Source of the DNA: Escherichia coli
GTDB taxonomy: Bacteria; Pseudomonadota; Gammaproteobacteria; Enterobacterales; Enterobacteriaceae
Assembly: GCF_044324875.1 (NCBI RefSeq)
Contig: NZ_CP172185.1
DNA length: 64,000 nucleotides
Strand: one strand, 5' to 3'
Of the stretch, positions 28,725 through 44,453 are shown piece by piece. Made by a program: the position numbers and the translations under genes. How positions within the stretch are numbered: the first letter of the stretch is position 1; every line of letters starts with the position of its first letter. Under the pieces are notes generated by a model. That model was not told where the DNA came from and did not search any database. It saw only the letters and a program-made list of their open reading frames with translations.

Positions 28725-31737
<3,013 letters not shown>

Positions 31738-32653: not shown

Positions 32654-32968
32654 ATGATCCGCAAAGCCTTTGTCATGCAGGTTAACCCCGACGCCCACGA
32701 AGAGTATCAGCGTCGGCATAATCCAATCTGGCCGGAACTGGAAGCAGTGTTGAAATCTCACGGTGCGCATAACTACGCCATTTACCTCGACAAAGCGCGT
32801 AATCTGCTGTTTGCCACGGTAGAGATTGAATCTGAAGAACGGTGGAATGCGGTAGCCAGTACTGATGTTTGCCAACGTTGGTGGAAGTATATGACCGACG
32901 TTATGCCCGCTAACCCGGATAACAGCCCGGTGAGTAGCGAGCTGCAAGAAGTGTTTTACCTGCCTTAA
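32654..32968 (+). CDS. rhaM: L-rhamnose mutarotase
   Basis: 104 aa, [30 protein letters not shown]... Confidence 0.9.
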
Positions 32969-33008
32969 TGAGTTGCGGTGCCGGAAAATATCCAGCACCG
33001 CGCCTTCA

Positions 33009-34403
33009 TCAGAAGAAGTATTTAAAGCGAACGCGTGCCCCGTAACGGTCATCAGTATCATCACCGTGTTTTTTATCACCGTCGCTATCCAGAATGGAGT
33101 AATACGTCCCGAGGTAAATATTAAAGTTCTCCATATCCATCACATTAGCGAACTGATAAGACGCATGAATGGTATGAATGGTGTACGTCCCTTCATCATC
33201 AATCCAGCAGTCGTTATCACAAACTACACCGCTGAATTCATCAATCTTATTGTGCGCGTAGATATAACCCAGCTCGAAACGTTTCCACAGCGCGTTAATC
33301 CCGGCAGTGAAATCTTTCTCATTATTAGCATCTAAATAGGCGGTATTAAGATTAACCACGACGCCATTTTCCGGATCCGTTTTCAGGCCATTCCAGGTCA
33401 TGCTCATACCATAGCCGGTACGATCGGACTGATCGACAAAATTACCCTTGCTATCGGTATAACCATAAGCATTATTTACTACGTTCGCTTCCATCGCTGC
33501 GGAAACGGTGAATTCTTCCGTCGGCGACCAGGCAATTACTGGACGCAGATAAGCAACATTTTTCTGCCGCTCCATATCGCGTCCATGATAATTACCGTCA
33601 TTATATAAAGATGTTCCGTCTTCAAGTAACGTGTTTAATTCAAAATACCAGTTATCAAGTTGTTTGCTGACGAGGAAATTACCGCCAGCGTTAGAGCGCC
33701 CGCGGCCCTCTTTCATCATATAGATATAACCGCTGCCATCGTCATAAAGATCGTTCGCAGTATTACCGGAATGTTCAACAAAGGTATCCTGATTCAGCGG
33801 GAACATATCGTAGGCTTCAAAACGGCCTACTTTGACCTTCCAGTCGTTTTCTTTGCCAAAGAAGAATACCGCATCATCGATATTTACTGAACCGTGCATG
33901 TCCCCCAGCGGTTGTGCGGAGAACCCGGCGAAATAACCGTTGTCCATCTTTCGCATACCATCAAAACCTAACAGAATACGACCATTGAGATTCCACTGTT
34001 CATTAGTGGGATCGCTATTCACATCAGCGTTGGTCATTGCCAGCAGGCCATGATTACTTTCTGCATCCATATTAAATTCTACGTCGCCGTAGATTTTTAA
34101 ATCGCCATAACCTGAGAGCAAAAGATTAGGTGAGGTGGAATTTTTCTTTGCAGATTCCGCCGTTGCCTGTCCATTTACCGGCGTATTGCCCTGGGCAGCC
34201 TTAATTTCGCGGATCTCAGCGGCTTGTTGTGTCTGCAGCTGTTTAACCTGGCTCTCTGCTTTTGCTGCCCGCATTTCTGCAGCTTCCAGGCGTTCTTCCA
34301 GCAATGCCATGCGTTGTTCCAGCGTTAAATGCTGTGTTTTTGCCATTCCGGTACTACATGCCAATAATAAACCGATGGCTAAAGATAATGTCGATTTTTT
34401 CAT
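33009..34403 (-). CDS. putative outer-membrane carbohydrate porin (OprB/ScrY-like) with N-terminal coiled coil
   Basis: 464 aa; signal peptide MKKSTLSLAIGLLLACSTGMA; coiled-coil segment (LEQRMALLEERLEAAEMRAAKAESQVKQLQ); aromatic/Gly-rich amphipathic strands; C-terminal ...RFKYFF typical of beta-barrels. Confidence 0.7.
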   Translation of the reverse strand: MKKSTLSLAIGLLLACSTGMAKTQHLTLEQRMALLEERLEAAEMRAAKAESQVKQLQTQQAAEIREIKAAQGNTPVNGQATAESAKKNSTSPNLLLSGYGDLKIYGDVEFNMDAESNHGLLAMTNADVNSDPTNEQWNLNGRILLGFDGMRKMDNGYFAGFSAQPLGDMHGSVNIDDAVFFFGKENDWKVKVGRFEAYDMFPLNQDTFVEHSGNTANDLYDDGSGYIYMMKEGRGRSNAGGNFLVSKQLDNWYFELNTLLEDGTSLYNDGNYHGRDMERQKNVAYLRPVIAWSPTEEFTVSAAMEANVVNNAYGYTDSKGNFVDQSDRTGYGMSMTWNGLKTDPENGVVVNLNTAYLDANNEKDFTAGINALWKRFELGYIYAHNKIDEFSGVVCDNDCWIDDEGTYTIHTIHASYQFANVMDMENFNIYLGTYYSILDSDGDKKHGDDTDDRYGARVRFKYFF

Positions 34404-34879
34404 TATTTACGTTCCCTGAAATAAAAGAGACCCTACGCTTTCCAAAAGGAATACGTATATAGAGAAATATAAGGTGTGCACTTTCGAATTTTTAATCCAA
34501 CTTCAGCAGGCCGATGGATAGTATCCCGCTGCATAATATGAGTAAATCCGCTGATTTCCTGGAACGTGAGGAATATAACAATAGTGCCGTTTTTAACCAA
34601 ATATCGTAAAAAACATTAGATATAATTCACGCTGACTCATAAGCCACAAATATAAATAACCTTGCTGCAAAACATGTGCGGCAGTTAAACATTCACAACA
34701 TCATTAAATAATGATTTTTTATTCACTGCATTTATTTTTCCCATCAATATGTGCCTTACACCGCAAAATTTATCCTTCACTCTGCCTTATATTGTCACGA
34801 CTTCACGACATATCCGCGCTCATCACAAAACCGCCCCGCCGTTACAATTAACTATAATATTTTTTCATGGAGTCCAATA

Positions 34880-35326
34880 ATGGCAGCACTTACTGCAAGC
34901 TGTATTGACCTGAATATTCAGGGCAATGGCACTTATTCCGTTCTGAAGCAGTTGGCGACAATGGCGTTACAAAACGATTTTATCACCGACTCACACCAGT
35001 TCCTGCAAACCCTGCTGCTGCGCGAAAAAATGCACTCCACGGGATTTGGTTCCGGCATCGCCGTGCCGCACGGTAAAAGCGCCTGCGTTAAACAACCGTT
35101 CGTGTTATTTGCCCGCAAAGCGCAGGCCATTGACTGGCAGGCCAGCGATGGCGAAGACGTCAATTGTTGGATCTGCCTCGGCGTGCCGCAAAGTGGCGAA
35201 GAGGATCAGGTCAAAATCATCGGCACGCTGTGCCGCAAAATTATCCACCAGGATTTTATCGACCAACTGCGACAGGGCGACGCCGACCAGGTGCTTGCTT
35301 TGTTAAATCAAACCCTCAGCTCATAA
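34880..35326 (+). CDS. frvA: PTS fructose-like EIIA component FrvA
   Basis: ORF 34751-35326; ATG at 34880 gives a 148-aa EIIA-type protein. Confidence 0.8.
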   Translation: MAALTASCIDLNIQGNGTYSVLKQLATMALQNDFITDSHQFLQTLLLREKMHSTGFGSGIAVPHGKSACVKQPFVLFARKAQAIDWQASDGEDVNCWICLGVPQSGEEDQVKIIGTLCRKIIHQDFIDQLRQGDADQVLALLNQTLSS

Positions 35327-35336
35327 GGAAGTGGCG

Positions 35337-36788
35337 ATGGAGTCATCCTTACGTATTGTCGCGATCACCAACTGCCCCGCCGGGATCGCTCACACCTACA
35401 TGGTGGCGGAAGCCCTGGAACAGAAAGCCCGTTCTCTCGGCCATACCATAAAAGTGGAAACTCAAGGATCCAGTGGCGTTGAAAACCGCTTATCCAGCGA
35501 AGAGATTGCCGCTGCCGATTACGTGATTCTCGCCACCGGGCGTGGCCTGAGCGGTGACGATCGCGCGCGGTTTGCCGGGAAAATGGTTTATGAGATTGCC
35601 ATCTCCCAGGCGCTGAAAAATATCGACCAGATTTTCAGTGAATTACCGACAAATTCGCAGCTTTTTGCCGCAGATAGCGGCGTGAAGCTCGGCAAACAGG
35701 AAGTACAAAGCGGCAGCGTGATGAGCCACCTGATGGCGGGTGTCTCTGCGGCGCTGCCGTTTGTCATCGGTGGCGGTATCCTGGTGGCGCTTGCCAACAT
35801 GCTGGTGCAGTTCGGTTTGCCGTATACCGATATGTCGAAAGGCGCGCCGTCGTTTACCTGGGTGGTTGAATCCATCGGTTATCTCGGCTTCACCTTTATG
35901 ATCCCCATCATGGGCGCTTATATTGCCTCGTCGATTGCCGATAAACCCGCTTTCGCTCCGGCGTTTCTGGTTTGCTATCTGGCGAATGACAAAGCCCTGC
36001 TCGGCACCCAGTCTGGCGCGGGCTTCCTCGGCGCGGTGGTGCTGGGGCTGGCGATTGGCTATTTCGTCTTCTGGTTCCGTAAAGTCCGTCTTGGCAAAGC
36101 ATTACAACCGCTGCTCGGCTCCATGCTTATCCCATTCGTTACTCTGCTGGTTTTTGGCGTGCTCACTTACTACGTTATCGGGCCGGTGATGTCCGACCTC
36201 ATGGGCGGGCTGCTCCACTTCCTGAATACCATTCCTCCATCAATGAAGTTTGCGGCAGCGTTTTTGGTCGGTGCGATGCTGGCGTTCGATATGGGCGGCC
36301 CTATCAACAAAACCGCCTGGTTCTTCTGCTTCTCACTGCTGGAAAAACACATTTATGACTGGTACGCCATCGTCGGCGTTGTCGCGCTGATGCCACCTGT
36401 CGCGGCGGGTCTTGCAACGTTCATTGCGCCCAAACTATTTACCCGACAGGAAAAAGAAGCCGCCAGTAGCGCCATAGTGGTCGGTGCCACAGTCGCAACC
36501 GAACCGGCTATTCCTTACGCTCTGGCGGCACCACTGCCAATGATTACCGCCAATACGCTGGCGGGCGGCATTACCGGCGTGCTGGTGATCGCTTTCGGAA
36601 TCAAACGTCTGGCACCGGGTTTAGGTATCTTTGACCCGCTGATCGGCCTGATGTCGCCGGTAGGTTCGTTTTATCTGGTGCTGGCGATTGGCCTCGCGCT
36701 GAACATTTCATTCATTATCGTCCTGAAAGGATTATGGTTACGCCGCAAAGCCAAAGCTGCGCAACAGGAGCTTGTCCATGAACATTGA
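35337..36788 (+). CDS. frvB: PTS fructose-like EIIBC component FrvB
   Basis: ORF 35331-36788; EIIB Cys motif (ITNCPAGIAHTYM) then polytopic EIIC. Confidence 0.9.
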   Translation: MESSLRIVAITNCPAGIAHTYMVAEALEQKARSLGHTIKVETQGSSGVENRLSSEEIAAADYVILATGRGLSGDDRARFAGKMVYEIAISQALKNIDQIFSELPTNSQLFAADSGVKLGKQEVQSGSVMSHLMAGVSAALPFVIGGGILVALANMLVQFGLPYTDMSKGAPSFTWVVESIGYLGFTFMIPIMGAYIASSIADKPAFAPAFLVCYLANDKALLGTQSGAGFLGAVVLGLAIGYFVFWFRKVRLGKALQPLLGSMLIPFVTLLVFGVLTYYVIGPVMSDLMGGLLHFLNTIPPSMKFAAAFLVGAMLAFDMGGPINKTAWFFCFSLLEKHIYDWYAIVGVVALMPPVAAGLATFIAPKLFTRQEKEAASSAIVVGATVATEPAIPYALAAPLPMITANTLAGGITGVLVIAFGIKRLAPGLGIFDPLIGLMSPVGSFYLVLAIGLALNISFIIVLKGLWLRRKAKAAQQELVHEH

Positions 36789-39645: not shown

Positions 39646-40296
39646 TTAACGCAGGCTATTATAGTCATCGACCATTTCGTTGTACTCGCGTAACGCTCGC
39701 GGAAATGAGTCGTCGACCATCCAGCTGGTGTTTGCATCCTGAAGTTGCTCTTTATCCCAGTCAGAGTACGGAACTTTATCTCTGACGCGGCGAACATATT
39801 TTTTAGCCTCGAGTTGATACTGGTCTGCCGAATTAATGAACGAGAAATTCATACCGCCTTTATCCGCTTCTTTGGCCTGCGCCACCAGCGTTTCCAGTTC
39901 AGAGACTTTCTTCATTGCCGCATCAACATCAAACTTCTCTTGCGAAATCAGGTTATTAATTTGTTTCGCTGAAATCATGACTGCCAGAGAGTAGTAGTGG
40001 AATGTTTTCCCTTCTCTTTGTTCAATATTTTTCAGTTCCGCAAGCTGGCGCTTATCGTTAATTTCCTGAATCGCCGCATGATAAGATTCTGCTACAGGTT
40101 CAAAGGCTTCAAGATTTTTTAAGAATGTCTGGTGCAGCGTTTTCCCTTTCGCAAACGCATCGTCTTTATAATTTTCCTGGGTGTAATATTTATCCATTTC
40201 GTTAATGGTATTACCCAACGCCACGGCAGCATCAATATAACTCACCGCCACGCCATCAATAGGTTGCAGCGCAGGCGTTAACGCCACTACACGCAT
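39646..40296 (-). CDS. yiiG: YiiG-like protein (DUF3829); possibly 5'-truncated versus K-12
   Basis: ORF 39646-40326 (GTG) with internal ATG at 40296; no signal peptide or lipobox at the N-terminus; only ~50 bp separates it from the fdhD stop. Confidence 0.55.
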   Translation of the reverse strand: MRVVALTPALQPIDGVAVSYIDAAVALGNTINEMDKYYTQENYKDDAFAKGKTLHQTFLKNLEAFEPVAESYHAAIQEINDKRQLAELKNIEQREGKTFHYYSLAVMISAKQINNLISQEKFDVDAAMKKVSELETLVAQAKEADKGGMNFSFINSADQYQLEAKKYVRRVRDKVPYSDWDKEQLQDANTSWMVDDSFPRALREYNEMVDDYNSLR

Positions 40297-40375
40297 TTTG
40301 TTTATAAATAAAATAATAAAATTCACGAAATGAATAAGTCCTGCAATTTAATATATATCGCAGGACTTATTTTAA

Positions 40376-41209
40376 TTAATTGCTCAAACGCTGCGGATGG
40401 GTATAAACCGTTGCCCGACCCGGTTTACAAAAGCCCACCAGCGTCAAATTACAGCGTTCAGCCACTTCTACAGCAAGTGTGGTCGCGGCAGACACCGCAA
40501 ACAAAATCTCTACGCCACACATCGCCGACTTTTGCACCATTTCATAACTGGCACGACTGGAAACCAGCACCGCACCTTGCTGCCAGCTTTCCCCTTCTTG
40601 TGACCGGCGGCCTAACAGTTTGTCCAGCGCCACATGGCGACCCACGTCTTCATGCCCGCCGACCAGTTCGCCAGATGGCAACATCCATGCAGCGGCGTGA
40701 GTACAACCAGTCAGTTGCCCCACTGGCTGGAAATCATTGAGATGACGTAATGCATCATCCAGTTTGTTGAGATCAAACGTCTGGGTGAACGGCAGCGGCT
40801 GCACCGGTTTCCCGATATCGTTAAGCTGTTCTACACCGCATACGCCACAGCCCGTACGTCCCGCCAGCGCCCGGCGGCGTTCCTTCAACCCCATAAAGCG
40901 GCGGCTGGAAAGCTCAATTTGAACTTCAAGACCATTACAGGAAGGAACGACATCCATGCCAAAGATATCGCGCGGACTTTCGATTATCCCCTCGGAAAGC
41001 GAAAAACCGAGCGCAAAGTACTCAAGGTCTTTGGGCGACGCCATCATCACCACATGCGAAATGCCGTTGTAGACCAGCGCAACGGGAACTTCTTCCGCGA
41101 CCTCATCTAACCGTGGGTGTTGTAAATCATCACGCCGCCATAACTCAATTTGACGAACACCTGTGATATTTGTCACATTTTCGATTTCTTTTTGCTGTGT
41201 TTTTTTCAC
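40376..41209 (-). CDS. fdhD: sulfurtransferase FdhD (formate dehydrogenase accessory protein)
   Basis: 277 aa, [28 protein letters not shown]... Confidence 0.9.
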
Positions 41210-41402: not shown

Positions 41403-44400
41403 ATGCAGGTCAGCAGAAGGCAGTTCTTTAAGATCTGCGCTGGCGGTATGGCAGGCACCACGGCGGCGGCACTGGGTTTTGCACCCAGCGTAGCACTCGC
41501 GGAAACCCGGCAGTATAAACTGCTGCGCACCCGCGAAACCCGTAATACCTGCACCTATTGTTCCGTAGGCTGTGGGCTGTTGATGTACAGCCTCGGTGAC
41601 GGAGCAAAAAACGCCAAAGCATCTATCTTCCATATCGAAGGCGATCCGGATCACCCGGTCAACCGCGGTGCACTTTGTCCGAAAGGCGCTGGCCTGGTGG
41701 ATTTCATCCACTCCGAAAGCCGTCTGAAGTTTCCGGAATACCGTGCGCCAGGTTCTGATAAATGGCAGCAAATCAGTTGGGAAGAGGCGTTTGATCGCAT
41801 CGCCAAACTGATGAAAGAAGACCGCGATGCTAACTACATTGCGCAAAACGCCGAAGGCGTGACAGTTAACCGCTGGCTCTCCACCGGGATGCTGTGTGCT
41901 TCCGCGTCGAGTAACGAAACCGGCTATTTAACGCAAAAATTCTCCCGCGCGCTGGGTATGCTCGCGGTCGACAACCAGGCGCGTGTCTGACACGGACCAA
42001 CGGTAGCAAGTCTTGCTCCAACATTTGGTCGCGGTGCGATGACCAACCACTGGGTCGACATCAAGAACGCCAACCTCGTCGTGGTGATGGGCGGTAACGC
42101 CGCTGAAGCTCACCCGGTCGGGTTCCGCTGGGCGATGGAAGCCAAAATTCACAACGGCGCGAAGCTGATTGTGATCGATCCTCGCTTTACGCGTACGGCG
42201 GCGGTGGCTGACTACTATGCCCCTATTCGTTCCGGTACTGACATTGCTTTCCTGTCAGGCGTATTGCTGTACCTGCTGAACAATGAAAAATTCAACCGCG
42301 AATACACCGAAGCCTATACCAACGCCAGCCTGATCGTGCGTGAGGATTACGGCTTTGAAGATGGCCTGTTCACCGGCTATGACGCGGAAAAACGCAAGTA
42401 CGATAAATCCTCCTGGACTTACGAACTGGACGAAAACGGCTTCGCCAAACGCGATACCACGCTGCAACATCCGCGCTGCGTGTGGAACTTGCTGAAACAG
42501 CACGTTTCCCGCTACACGCCAGATGTGGTTGAAAACATCTGTGGTACGCCAAAAGACGCGTTCCTGAAAGTCTGCGAATACATCGCAGAAACCAGTGCTC
42601 ACGATAAAACTGCCTCGTTCCTGTATGCCCTCGGCTGGACGCAACACTCCGTTGGTGCGCAAAACATTCGTACGATGGCGATGATCCAGCTGCTGCTCGG
42701 CAACATGGGGATGGCAGGCGGCGGCGTTAACGCCCTGCGCGGTCACTCCAATATTCAGGGGCTGACGGACCTGGGGCTGCTGTCGCAGAGCCTGCCAGGT
42801 TACATGACGCTGCCAAGCGAGAAGCAGACCGATCTGCAAACCTACCTTACCGCCAACACGCCAAAACCGCTGCTGGAAGGCCAGGTAAACTACTGGGGCA
42901 ACTACCCGAAATTCTTCGTCTCCATGATGAAGGCCTTCTTTGGTGATAAAGCGACGGCGGAAAATAGCTGGGGCTTTGACTGGTTGCCGAAGTGGGATAA
43001 AGGCTACGACGTCCTGCAATACTTCGAGATGATGAAAGAAGGCAAGGTCAATGGCTATATCTGCCAGGGCTTTAACCCTGTTGCCTCATTCCCGAACAAA
43101 AACAAAGTGATCAGTTGTCTGTCGAAACTGAAGTTCCTCGTCACTATCGACCCGCTGAACACTGAAACCTCTAACTTCTGGCAGAACCACGGTGAGCTGA
43201 ACGAAGTTGACTCGTCGAAGATCCAGACCGAAGTGTTCCGTCTGCCATCGACCTGCTTTGCGGAAGAGAACGGTTCTATCGTTAACTCCGGTCGCTGGTT
43301 GCAGTGGCACTGGAAAGGTGCGGACGCCCCAGGGATTGCGCTGACTGATGGCGAGATCCTCTCCGGTATCTTCCTGCGCTTGCGCAAGATGTATGCCGAA
43401 CAGGGTGGCGCGAACCCGGACCAGGTGCTGAACATGACCTGGAACTACGCTATCCCGCATGAGCCGAAGTCGGAAGAAGTAGCGATGGAGAGCAACGGTA
43501 AGGCGCTGGCCGATATTACCGATCCGGCAACCGGTGCGGTTATCGTCAAGAAAGGCCAACAACTTAGCTCGTTCGCCCAACTGCGCGATGACGGTACAAC
43601 CTCCTGTGGCTGCTGGATTTTCGCCGGTAGCTGGACGCCAGAAGGTAACCAGATGGCACGCCGTGATAACGCCGATCCGTCTGGCCTCGGTAACACGCTG
43701 GGCTGGGCATGGGCATGGCCGCTTAACCGCCGCATTCTGTATAACCGCGCCTCCGCAGATCCGCAGGGTAACCCGTGGGATCCGAAGCGTCAGTTGCTGA
43801 AATGGGACGGCACTAAGTGGACCGGCTGGGATATTCCGGACTACAGCGCAGCGCCTCCGGGTAGCGGCGTCGGGCCGTTTATCATGCAGCAGGAAGGCAT
43901 GGGGCGTCTGTTTGCCCTCGATAAGATGGCGGAAGGTCCGTTCCCGGAACACTACGAGCCGTTTGAAACGCCGCTGGGAACTAACCCGCTGCATCCAAAC
44001 GTTATCTCGAACCCGGCTGCACGTATCTTTAAAGACGACGCCGAAGCATTGGGTAAAGCCGATAAGTTCCCGTATGTCGGAACCACCTATCGTCTGACCG
44101 AGCACTTCCACTACTGGACCAAACACGCGCTGTTGAACGCGATTTTGCAACCAGAGCAGTTTGTGGAAATCGGGGAGTCGCTGGCGAATAAACTTGGCAT
44201 TGCCCAGGGCGATACCGTGAAAGTCTCCTCCAACCGTGGCTATATCAAAGCCAAAGCGGTGGTGACCAAACGTATTCGCACGCTGAAAGCGAACGGCAAA
44301 GATATCGATACCATCGGTATTCCGATTCACTGGGGCTATGAAGGTGTTGCGAAAAAAGGCTTTATTGCCAATACGTTAACGCCATTCGTTGGTGATGCGA

Positions 44401-44453
44401 ACACGCAGACGCCAGAGTTTAAGTCCTTCCTTGTGAATGTGGAAAAGGTGTAA
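41403..44453 (+). CDS. fdoG: formate dehydrogenase-O major subunit (selenoprotein; in-frame TGA at 41988-41990 read as Sec)
   Basis: ORFs 41403-41990 and 42039-44453 are in the same frame, separated by one TGA; Tat signal MQVSRRQFFKICAGG; Fe-S and molybdopterin motifs. Confidence 0.9.
41988..42040 (+). promoter_or_regulatory. selenocysteine codon plus putative SECIS hairpin region of fdoG
   Basis: The TGA is followed by structured sequence (cacggaccaacggtagcaagtcttgctccaac...); the element itself is inferred from the in-frame selenoprotein context. Confidence 0.45.

Follow-up and report, generated by a model that had tools for sequence, protein, structure and literature searches.

A chromosomal RafY-family porin gene beside rhaM, present in nearly half of complete Escherichia coli genomes

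The gene lying on the minus strand between rhaM and frvA in the window, the whole 64-kb stretch of Escherichia coli DNA analysed here, is an intact, full-length chromosomal member of the RafY glycoporin family (PF16966, TC 1.B.15). It is an accessory porin of an already described family and not a new kind of system. By analogy with its characterised relatives, the product is most likely a wide, oligosaccharide-permeable diffusion pore, and we consider it probable that the gene as a whole represents a stand-alone oligosaccharide diffusion porin with a promoter of its own that may be activated by CRP. The program-made ORF list of the window gives an ORF of 464 amino acids plus a stop codon with an ATG start, exactly as an earlier sequence-only reading had placed it. 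Gene names of the neighbours were assigned via annotated homologous records; rhaM (32654-32968, plus strand) lies downstream and is convergent with the porin gene, and frvA (34880-35326, plus strand) lies upstream and is divergent. The intergenic region 34404-34879 (476 bp) is AT-rich, with a GC content of 0.36-0.38 vs about 0.55 in the flanks, in agreement with the AT-rich region of about 475 bp noted before. Homologous genes are named 'carbohydrate porin' in RefSeq, and one O157:H7 paper (PMC4809568) gives the same gene the name rafY2. The features that define the locus are as follows.

33009-34403, minus strand: RafY-family porin coding sequence ('rafY2' / 'carbohydrate porin'), from the ORF list, Pfam PF16966, 78% amino acid identity to plasmid RafY and the RefSeq annotation of the homologous gene.
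32970-34744, no strand: segment of 1775 bp that comprises the porin gene and the 341 bp preceding it, with borders from BLAST against MG1655; K-12-type strains have 164 unrelated bp there.
32970-33006, no strand: GC-rich hairpin, a possible bidirectional terminator, from its fold energy and its position between the convergent rhaM and porin genes.

Concerning family membership, a Pfam search matched residues 104-464 to PF16966 (Porin_8, glycoporin RafY) with E=1.2e-153, covering model positions 1-372 of 372. The same profile was matched by all of the aligned relatives (47/47). This full-length match, together with 658 homologues at E<=1e-5 and a low dN/dS, indicates a real gene rather than a chance ORF. 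In the same search of the 464-aa porin, neither the LamB/ScrY profile PF02264 (at E<=10) nor the OprB profile PF04966 gave a match, and an NCBIfam search returned nothing meaningful. A sequence search of the PDB found no relative of the porin, and no PF16966 member matched a solved structure. The protein is 78% identical over 450 amino acids to a RafY copy from a plasmid rafR-rafA-rafB-rafD cluster, in which the porin gene comes last; the porin that ends this cluster is RafY by its UniRef name. The sequence-only reading had compared the protein to ScrY/OprB-type sugar porins and had proposed a profile search against porin families. With the full-model match to PF16966, the assignment to a sugar-porin ('glycoporin') family and the ScrY-type coiled coil stand, while membership of the LamB/ScrY or OprB families falls away with the unmatched PF02264 and PF04966.

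The primary structure and an AlphaFold monomer model (overall pLDDT 80) were then divided into the following parts.

34341-34403, minus strand: signal peptide (aa 1-21) that begins with MKK, has a hydrophobic core and ends in G-M-A ahead of K, read from the sequence.
34191-34322, minus strand: predicted periplasmic coiled coil near the N-terminus (aa 28-71), resembling the Sugarporin_N module of ScrY, from the AlphaFold helix, the 3-4 hydrophobic spacing and PF11471.
34113-34190, minus strand: linker, aa 72-97, variable in the alignment and with pLDDT <50 in the AlphaFold model.
33012-34094, minus strand: beta-barrel domain (Porin_8), aa 104-464, with 16 strands and the C-terminal beta-signal ...RVRFKYFF, from the model and Pfam.
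33684-33821, minus strand: long loop (aa 195-240) that joins strand 5 to strand 6, a proposed L3-like constriction loop, from the strand-free stretch 194-241 in the model.

The N-terminus, MKKSTLSLAIGLLLACSTGMA followed by KT, reads as a signal peptide, and an A-x-A-type cleavage motif ahead of K or KT was kept in the aligned relatives. A lipoprotein reading based on LLAC at residues 13-16 was rejected; Cys16 is not conserved (Citrobacter has ...LLLVANTGFA followed by KT), so that these residues do not constitute a lipobox. The modelled helix at aa 28-71 (pLDDT ~85) shows continuous 3-4 hydrophobic (heptad) spacing. Sugarporin_N (PF11471) matched weakly here (E=0.06), and among the relatives 7 matched at E<=0.001 and 18 at E<=0.1. 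This Sugarporin_N-type coiled-coil module is probably common to the porin and ScrY; the barrel is not. Shorter family members (~350-390 aa) do not possess the coiled-coil extension. The model contains 16 beta strands across aa 100-463, and in the C-terminus, ...RVRFKYFF, hydrophobic residues alternate up to an aromatic end. The earlier description of a signal-peptide-bearing outer-membrane beta-barrel with an N-terminal coiled coil was supported by the modelled helix at 28-71, the 16 predicted strands and the aromatic ...FKYFF end; as for the non-barrel fold that would have spoken against it, structure prediction gave a 16-stranded barrel. The fold of the modelled barrel was closer to OmpF/OprP/ChiP/DcaP-type porins, with ScrY and LamB in a second tier; the model has 16 strands and not the 18 of the LamB/ScrY barrel, and the likeness to OprB is confined to fold matches. 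A paper by the TCDB authors also predicts 16 strands, along with oligosaccharide substrates, for the RafY family (PMC4827864). The loop at aa 195-240 is the most conserved block of the family (consensus FEAYDMFPLGQDTFVE.SG.TANDLY.DG.GYIYMMKEGRGRS; D206, Y228 and R236 invariant) and is partly of low confidence in the model (pLDDT ~51 at residues 211-220). On the basis of OmpF-type architecture, we propose that it may act as an L3-like constriction.

Among known systems, the closest is RafY, reportedly of the raffinose plasmid pRSD2 and studied by Ulmke, Lengeler and Schmid in 1997 and by Andersen and co-workers in 1998. The two proteins are alike in their full-length family match, their length (464 aa each), their 78% identity and the order of their parts, with a signal peptide and a coiled coil ahead of the barrel. 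They differ in setting, as the chromosomal gene is solitary whereas plasmid rafY is the last gene of a rafRABD cluster, and their upstream regions are unrelated. RafY is reported to act as a general diffusion pore without specificity for carbohydrates (Andersen et al. 1998, by its title as cited in PMC4827864), and literature summaries state that it complements ScrY and LamB (PMC4809568, PMC4827864). What has been reported of this characterised homologue argues against the substrate-specific channel that the sequence-only reading had suggested. The sucrose porin ScrY, which carries the same kind of N-terminal coiled coil (PF11471), and the maltoporin LamB (both PF02264, TC 1.B.3) are functional analogues. 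DcaP of Acinetobacter baumannii (PDB 6eus) and the 16-stranded trimeric porins OmpF, OprP and VhChiP share 8-14% identity with the protein and belong to other Pfam families; unlike a RafY-type porin, their substrates are dicarboxylates, phosphate, chitosugars or general solutes. OprB (PF04966) gave no profile match to the porin and has no coiled-coil extension.

GlyP of Klebsiella pneumoniae is a further chromosomal RafY-family porin. In a recent preprint, GlyP alone alters nutritional competence and can replace major porins, and derepression of this one porin was enough to raise the nutritional fitness of an OmpK35/36 mutant (bioRxiv 10.64898/2026.03.29.715108). According to the same preprint, glyP belongs to a regulator-permease-hydrolase-porin operon under the LacI-type repressor GlyR, whereas in E. 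coli neither a regulator gene nor catabolic genes adjoin the porin gene. We also observed a family member in K. pneumoniae P0118 together with an IS200 transposase, an MFS and a GH43 gene on a 7-kb contig, which is uninformative for a link to the published GlyP. A Salmonella homologue is lactulose-induced, according to PMC13304739. We found no experiment on the chromosomal E. coli gene; one paper records that O157:H7 carries it, with an identical sequence in isolates that differ in raffinose oxidation rate (PMC4809568). Elsewhere, family members are found at the end of oligosaccharide operons (raf; ABC/GH13/GH130). This typical linkage, seen in plasmids, Klebsiella sp. B345 and Buttiauxella, is not defining for the family, and is absent here, the porin gene being solitary in E. 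coli, Citrobacter and Kluyvera.

We examined the distribution of the gene in 5426 complete E. coli genomes. The porin gene was present in 2557 (47%), while 2826 (52%) carried rha and frv with a 164-bp filler in place of the porin, a clean two-state polymorphism. In BLAST, MG1655 matched the window through 32969 and resumed at 34745, with 164 unrelated bp between. The sequence-only reading, which had expected no gene at this position in K-12, was correct on this point; 164 unrelated bp replace 32970-34744 in MG1655. We rejected an origin of the filler by decay of the porin segment, as the local alignment score was 21 vs a shuffle mean of 22.2. Carriers include O157:H7, ST131 and other B2 strains, Nissle 1917 and strain 042. 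B2 strains have kept the porin and lost frvABXR, and a separate porin deletion via IS1 was found in HS30-1. The 464-aa ORF is intact in the D-type allele (that of the window) and in the O157 and B2 alleles. The porin is under strong purifying selection: dN/dS is 0.05-0.065 when E. coli alleles are compared with each other and 0.03-0.07 in comparisons across genera. By synteny, the porin gene also neighbours rhaM in Citrobacter, Kluyvera and Klebsiella, where the frv operon is missing, and the rhaM-adjacent porin is kept in at least four genera. In Citrobacter, Kluyvera and Pseudocitrobacter it stands alone with the same upstream neighbours (an HTH/cupin regulator and azlCD). In K. grimontii, genes for a LacI-type regulator, a glycoside-type MFS transporter and a beta-helix protein lie between the porin gene and rhaM. 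Klebsiella sp. B345 harbours genes for LacI, a GH36 alpha-galactosidase, a LacY-type permease and the porin at the same site, convergent with rhaM.

Alignment of the upstream DNA across genera gave the following candidate elements.

34518-34546, minus strand: predicted porin promoter, with -35 TTTACT (34546-34541), a 17-nt spacer and -10 TACTAT (34523-34518), from the cross-genus alignment.
34565-34580, minus strand: CRP-like site TGTTATATTCCTCACG, matching 8/10 core bases and with its centre at about -61.5 relative to the predicted start, from the alignment.
34404-34511, minus strand: predicted 5' untranslated region of ~108 nt, with a Shine-Dalgarno sequence AGGGAA (34412-34417) and an inverted repeat TTCC-N4-GGAA (34438-34453), from the alignment.
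34745-34879, plus strand: frvA-proximal upstream DNA, the presumed frvA control region, common to porin-less strains; the K-12 match resumes at 34745 with 90.9% identity.

The TTTAC (-35) and TAnTAT-like (-10) hexamers align across genera and place the predicted transcription start near 34511. E. coli, Citrobacter, Kluyvera and Pseudocitrobacter have identical half-sites of the CRP-like sequence (TGTTA-N6-TCACG) around a varying spacer, and the -61.5 spacing to the -35/-10 elements is preserved across genera. This conservation suggests that a CRP class I-type promoter may drive the porin gene. A consensus promoter scan did not report the proposed promoter at 34518-34546 and listed another candidate (34495-34466) that is not conserved in Citrobacter. 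Within the window, the CRP-like pattern allowing 2 mismatches was not enriched (26 matches vs 26.5 expected). We do not claim a structured RNA element, because Rfam had no family in 32900-35000 and the fold of the predicted 5' untranslated region was no better than shuffles (z=-0.31). The sequence-only reading had taken the whole intergenic region as a shared divergent control region. Taking into account that only the 135 bp at 34745-34879 upstream of frvA are common to porin-less strains (and partly retained in B2 strains despite the frv deletion), and that the porin elements conserved across genera lie at 34404-34580, the region 34404-34879 looks like two separate control regions. At the other end of the gene, RNA fold energies of the hairpin were -20.2 kcal/mol on the plus strand and -24.0 kcal/mol on the minus strand. 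As it has no U-tract and was not called by a terminator scan, its possible role as a bidirectional terminator is one that we infer.

We propose that the porin would be exported by Sec and inserted into the outer membrane by BAM. It would form a trimer, whose three N-terminal helices may wind around each other in the periplasm, like the coiled coils of ScrY and DcaP. Each barrel would hold a wide, water-filled pore for diffusion, with the loop at aa 195-240 reducing its width. As reported for RafY, the channel might pass to the periplasm di- to oligosaccharides that are too bulky for OmpF/OmpC, such as raffinose, sucrose, melibiose and maltodextrins, which would next be taken up by the strain's own inner-membrane permeases (LacY, MelB, Csc, Mal). 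The porin would act in scavenging outside the rha and frv operons, from a probable promoter of its own (start near 34511) activated by cAMP-CRP through the class I site at -61.5. Because cAMP-CRP activation is proposed, the porin would be made once good carbon sources run out.

An alternative, which we regard as unlikely, is that the gene is an orphan of a lost chromosomal raffinose (raf) cluster that mainly serves raffinose-family sugars via LacY or MelB, or via a raf plasmid or island if present. The cluster of LacI, GH36, LacY-type permease and porin genes at the same rhaM site in Klebsiella sp. B345 is in line with such an origin, as is the porin paralogue at the end of raf clusters on plasmids and on a tRNA-Phe island. 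O157:H7 lacks rafRABD and still oxidises raffinose (PMC4809568). The 3' 800 nt of the chromosomal gene are 86.5% identical to plasmid rafY with third positions unsaturated. The signal peptide and aa 61-200, on the other hand, are far more divergent from plasmid RafY (66% amino acid identity, third positions saturated), and in a protein NJ tree plasmid RafY does not fall beside the E. coli chromosomal clade. As segment-wise nucleotide analysis indicates a mosaic relationship, no simple origin is claimed. What speaks against an orphan is that the porin is solitary, with the same upstream neighbours, in Citrobacter, Kluyvera and Pseudocitrobacter. With three genera having the porin alone, it seems that the porin was ancestrally solitary and that the raf genes were inserted beside it in one Klebsiella. 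Moreover, the 341 bp upstream contain no raf remnant, and this DNA aligns with the Citrobacter intergenic region. We therefore gave less weight to a deleted raf operon as the source of the E. coli gene, an account that differs from a stand-alone porin mainly by history and not by mechanism.

We consider it very unlikely that the porin is a substrate-specific channel reserved for the neighbouring rhamnose or frv (fructose-like PTS) operon, with a divergent control region in common with frvA. The porin gene adjoins both operons, its adjacency to rhaM is kept in at least four genera, and the LacI-type regulator, MFS and beta-helix genes of K. grimontii leave room for a link to rhamnose-containing oligosaccharides. 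However, the sequence-only reading's proposal that the porin serves these operons does not agree with the comparison of the rhaM–frvA interval across genomes that it had itself suggested, in which porin and operons were found apart in both directions: B2 strains have the porin without frvABXR, other genera have it without frv, and the 2826 filler genomes, K-12 included, have rha and frv without the porin. We thus conclude that the porin is not tied to the flanking operons. Rhamnose and hexoses are also small enough to pass through OmpF/OmpC. The porin gene and rhaM converge, with a strong hairpin between them, just 135 bp of the DNA upstream of frvA are common to porin-less strains, and the characterised family member is reported as non-specific.

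It is also very unlikely that the gene is (nearly) silent and matters today mainly as a target on the cell surface (phage receptor, colicin receptor or antigen) or as a spare general porin useful only after OmpF/OmpC loss, a trade-off that the polymorphism would in the latter case reflect: the clean split, the independent IS1 deletion in HS30-1, conserved elements in a long predicted 5' UTR that could take post-transcriptional repression, and the behaviour of GlyP (normally repressed, beneficial after major-porin loss and costly on other sugars; bioRxiv 10.64898/2026.03.29.715108) would fit, but a dN/dS of ~0.05 argues for regular use of the protein, receptor data for the porin were not found, and no repressor gene lies beside it in E. 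coli.

Returning to the stand-alone diffusion porin, its annotation is already correct, and the result is mostly bookkeeping on an accessory porin whose family is small and lacks a solved structure. Since no PF16966 member matched a solved structure by sequence, solving one would add something new. Recent Klebsiella work shows that a RafY-family porin can compensate for lost major porins. We tentatively entertain, as possible though doubtful, a CRP-switched 'hunger' channel that splits E. coli into two long-lived permeability types (47% vs 52%), with plasmid rafY deriving partly from recombination with the Escherichia chromosomal gene. If true, the two-type split would affect gut oligosaccharide scavenging, susceptibility to large antibiotics after OmpF/OmpC loss and perhaps phage sensitivity. 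Since about half of E. coli carry the porin and laboratory K-12 does not, its part in sugar uptake, antibiotic entry and phage adsorption would escape work on K-12.

Between rhaM and frvA, two genes named from annotated homologous RefSeq records, the window contains an open reading frame (ORF) for an outer-membrane porin.

32654-32968, plus strand: rhaM, downstream of the porin gene and convergent with it
32970-33006: GC-rich hairpin between the convergent rhaM and porin genes (-20 to -24 kcal/mol, without a U-tract)
33009-34403, minus strand: porin ORF, 464 aa
34880-35326, plus strand: frvA, upstream of the porin gene and divergent from it

The MG1655 sequence matched the window as far as 32969, one base beyond the rhaM stop codon, and the match restarted at 34745; 1775 bp in the window stand against 164 bp in K-12 at the same place. 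The sequence-only reading was correct in its description of the ORF and in presuming it absent from K-12. The K-12 filler displayed no similarity to the segment in its place (local alignment score 21, shuffle mean 22.2). GC content was 0.42-0.47 in the porin gene and 0.36-0.38 in the intergenic region 34404-34879, compared with approximately 0.55 in the flanks. Identity to K-12 was 96.2% for rhaM and 90.9% for the frvA region (window 34745-35400 against 2034-2689 of the K-12 locus), the latter divergence looking high for within-species DNA.

Further along the window, yiiG (DUF3829; 39646-40326, minus strand) is present in a short form of 226 aa found in a minority of genomes, most E. coli genomes carrying approximately 470 bp extra at this gene. 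The formate dehydrogenase alpha-subunit frame is split into two ORFs (41403-41990 and 42039-44453, plus strand), which we take to reflect the expected in-frame selenocysteine TGA of fdoG and not a defect.

The porin protein matched the Pfam family PF16966, "Porin-like glycoporin RafY", over the entire model (residues 104-464, model 1-372 of 372, E=1.2e-153), and weakly matched PF11471 (residues 27-54, E=0.06), which describes the N-terminal periplasmic extension found in sugar porins. In the same search neither the LamB/ScrY nor the OprB profile matched; NCBIfam had no model for the protein, and the PDB no sequence-related entry. Annotations of complete E. coli genomes call the gene "carbohydrate porin". 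Plasmids and a tRNA-Phe island carry a DNA relative with 86% identity, which there closes a cluster encoding a LacI regulator, an alpha-galactosidase, an MFS permease and a GH32 invertase. This cluster is the classical raf operon, and the plasmid relative, named RafY by UniRef, shares 78% identity with the protein of the window. E. coli O157:H7 has been reported to lack rafRABD but to carry "a rafY homolog annotated as rafY2" (PMC4809568). Our literature search did not find a functional study of the chromosomal gene. The gene is an accessory member of a known, already annotated porin family, earlier noted as rafY2, and is a real but ordinary finding.

The protein architecture was examined with an alignment of 47 family members (24-84% identity to the query), collected by a word-indexed search, which gave 658 hits, and by exhaustively searching 1.84 billion cluster representatives. 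As only 234 clusters were obtained at E≤0.001 in the latter, the RafY-type family is small. An AlphaFold model based on this alignment (mean pLDDT 80) contained the following elements.

Residues 4-16: signal-peptide helix
Residues 28-71: long helix
Residues 72-97: low-confidence linker
Residues 100-463: sixteen beta strands
Residues 195-240: strand-free stretch between strands 5 and 6

Conservation in the family was highest in the 195-240 block, with D206, Y228 and R236 invariant among the 47 members. The sequence of helix 28-71 displays an unbroken 3-4 hydrophobic spacing (L28, M32, L35, L39, A42, A46, A49, V53, L56 ... I67). Sugarporin_N matched 7 of the aligned members at E≤0.001 and 18 at E≤0.1, and the N-terminal extension is missing from shorter family members of about 350-390 aa. 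The model predicts a ScrY-type coiled-coil module followed by a barrel of OmpF/ChiP/DcaP type that has an L3-like loop. As for the ScrY/OprB-type assignment made previously, the coiled-coil module is probably of the kind present in ScrY; the predicted barrel differs in type from that of LamB/ScrY, and the OprB assignment is not borne out by the profile search. The authors of TCDB have independently described RafY-family proteins as having 16 strands and transporting oligosaccharides (PMC4827864). An LLAC motif was considered as a lipobox and rejected because Cys16 varies among relatives.

Of 5426 complete E. coli genomes, 2557 carried the porin gene (coverage at least 80%), among them strain 042 (99.4% identity), O157:H7, O55:H7, ST131, Nissle 1917 and E. 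coli C. The K-12-type 164-bp filler was found in 2826, so that the two states account for nearly all genomes. The filler itself occurs in two forms, one with at least 99% identity (2137 genomes) and one with 80-90% (690 genomes). In B2 strains, frvABXR and the 5' part of yiiG are gone, and the porin gene and its upstream DNA are retained (7158-7712 of the B2 locus). In strain HS30-1, 75 bp from the 3' end of the porin gene are left next to an IS1, and frv and yiiG are gone (2288-3077 of its locus). The interval from rhaM to fdhD is a hot spot for deletions.

Orthologues convergent with rhaM were found in Citrobacter, Kluyvera and Klebsiella sp. B345, so the porin gene has stood alone beside rhaM for a long time; later replacement is the simplest explanation for its lack in K-12-type strains. 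Insertions of other sugar genes separate the porin gene from rhaM in K. grimontii and Pseudocitrobacter, and only in Klebsiella sp. B345 are rafR-, rafA- and rafB-like genes directly upstream. A family member in Buttiauxella ends an ABC/GH13/GH130 operon. A K. pneumoniae family member, P0118 (860-2095 of a short contig), is 72% identical over the barrel but lacks the coiled-coil extension, and its neighbours are an MFS_2 transporter, a GH43 hydrolase and an IS200-type transposase. RafY-type porins have evidently been recruited to several different glycoside operons. The dN/dS ratio was 0.05-0.065 when E. coli alleles were compared and 0.03-0.07 in comparisons between genera, values that mark the protein as strongly constrained. 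Selective maintenance of the gene and its independence from the neighbouring operons are shown.

The gene was compared with plasmid rafY in a codon alignment (window 33012-34403, plasmid locus 8006-9397). Identity was 86.5% over nt 601-1398 (0.73 at third positions) and only 69.5% over nt 181-600 (0.43), and the O157 and B2 alleles displayed the same mosaic pattern. GC3 was 0.46 in the E. coli porin gene, compared with 0.35 for plasmid rafY and 0.64 for Citrobacter, and plasmid RafY and the chromosomal porin did not group together in a protein NJ tree. The mosaic relation suggests an old recombination between the two lineages, for which we claim no direction.

Upstream DNA of seven orthologues was aligned, revealing a conserved ribosome-binding site, TTTAT.TC..GGAA. 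E. coli, Citrobacter, Kluyvera and Pseudocitrobacter share the palindrome TGTTA-N6-TCACG, whose half-sites are invariant and whose spacer varies; TTTAC[T/A/C] lies 18 nt beyond it, followed after a 16-17 nt spacer by a TAnTAT-like hexamer.

34580-34565, minus strand: TGTTA-N6-TCACG palindrome, candidate CRP site
34546-34541, minus strand: TTTAC[T/A/C] hexamer
34523-34518, minus strand: TAnTAT-like hexamer

With a predicted start near 34511, the palindrome would be centred at -61.5, where class I CRP sites lie in the lac-type arrangement. We therefore hypothesize a candidate CRP class I promoter. The candidate site has two mismatches, CRP-like sites in the window (26) were as frequent as expected by chance (26.5), and a consensus promoter scan chose another, non-conserved candidate at 34495-34466. 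The predicted 108-nt leader gave no significant fold and no Rfam match. It contains an inverted repeat, TTCC-N4-GGAA (34438-34453, minus strand), which Citrobacter keeps with a different loop. Elsewhere in the window, a CRP site that fits the consensus perfectly, TGTGATATTTGTCACA (0 mismatches), is located at 41162-41177 at the fdhD start and in the fdoG upstream region, and a one-mismatch site, TGTGAACATCATCACG, at 28888-28903 upstream of rhaB (ORF start 29012), presumably the CRP site already known from the rhaBAD promoter.

A channel serving the flanking operons from a control region shared with frvA had been proposed. Only 34745-34879, presumably frvA's own control DNA, is common to porin-less strains. 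Since, in addition, the porin occurs without frv and the neighbours occur without the porin, a channel specific for rhamnose or an frv substrate is unlikely. The mechanism that we propose draws all its support from relatives of the porin. After export the protein would insert as a trimer, its three N-terminal helices forming a periplasmic coiled coil. Each 16-stranded barrel would form a wide channel for diffusion, constricted by loop 195-240, through which oligosaccharides too large for OmpF/OmpC may cross, to be taken up by whichever permeases the strain has available. Derepression of K. pneumoniae GlyP alone confers a nutritional advantage in an OmpK35/36 mutant (bioRxiv 10.64898/2026.03.29.715108), and a Salmonella homologue is lactulose-induced (PMC13304739). 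To what was known of this family, our analysis adds the predicted architecture of a 16-strand barrel with a ScrY-type module, the 47%/52% dimorphism in E. coli, the cross-genus synteny, the mosaic relation to plasmid rafY and a candidate CRP class I promoter.
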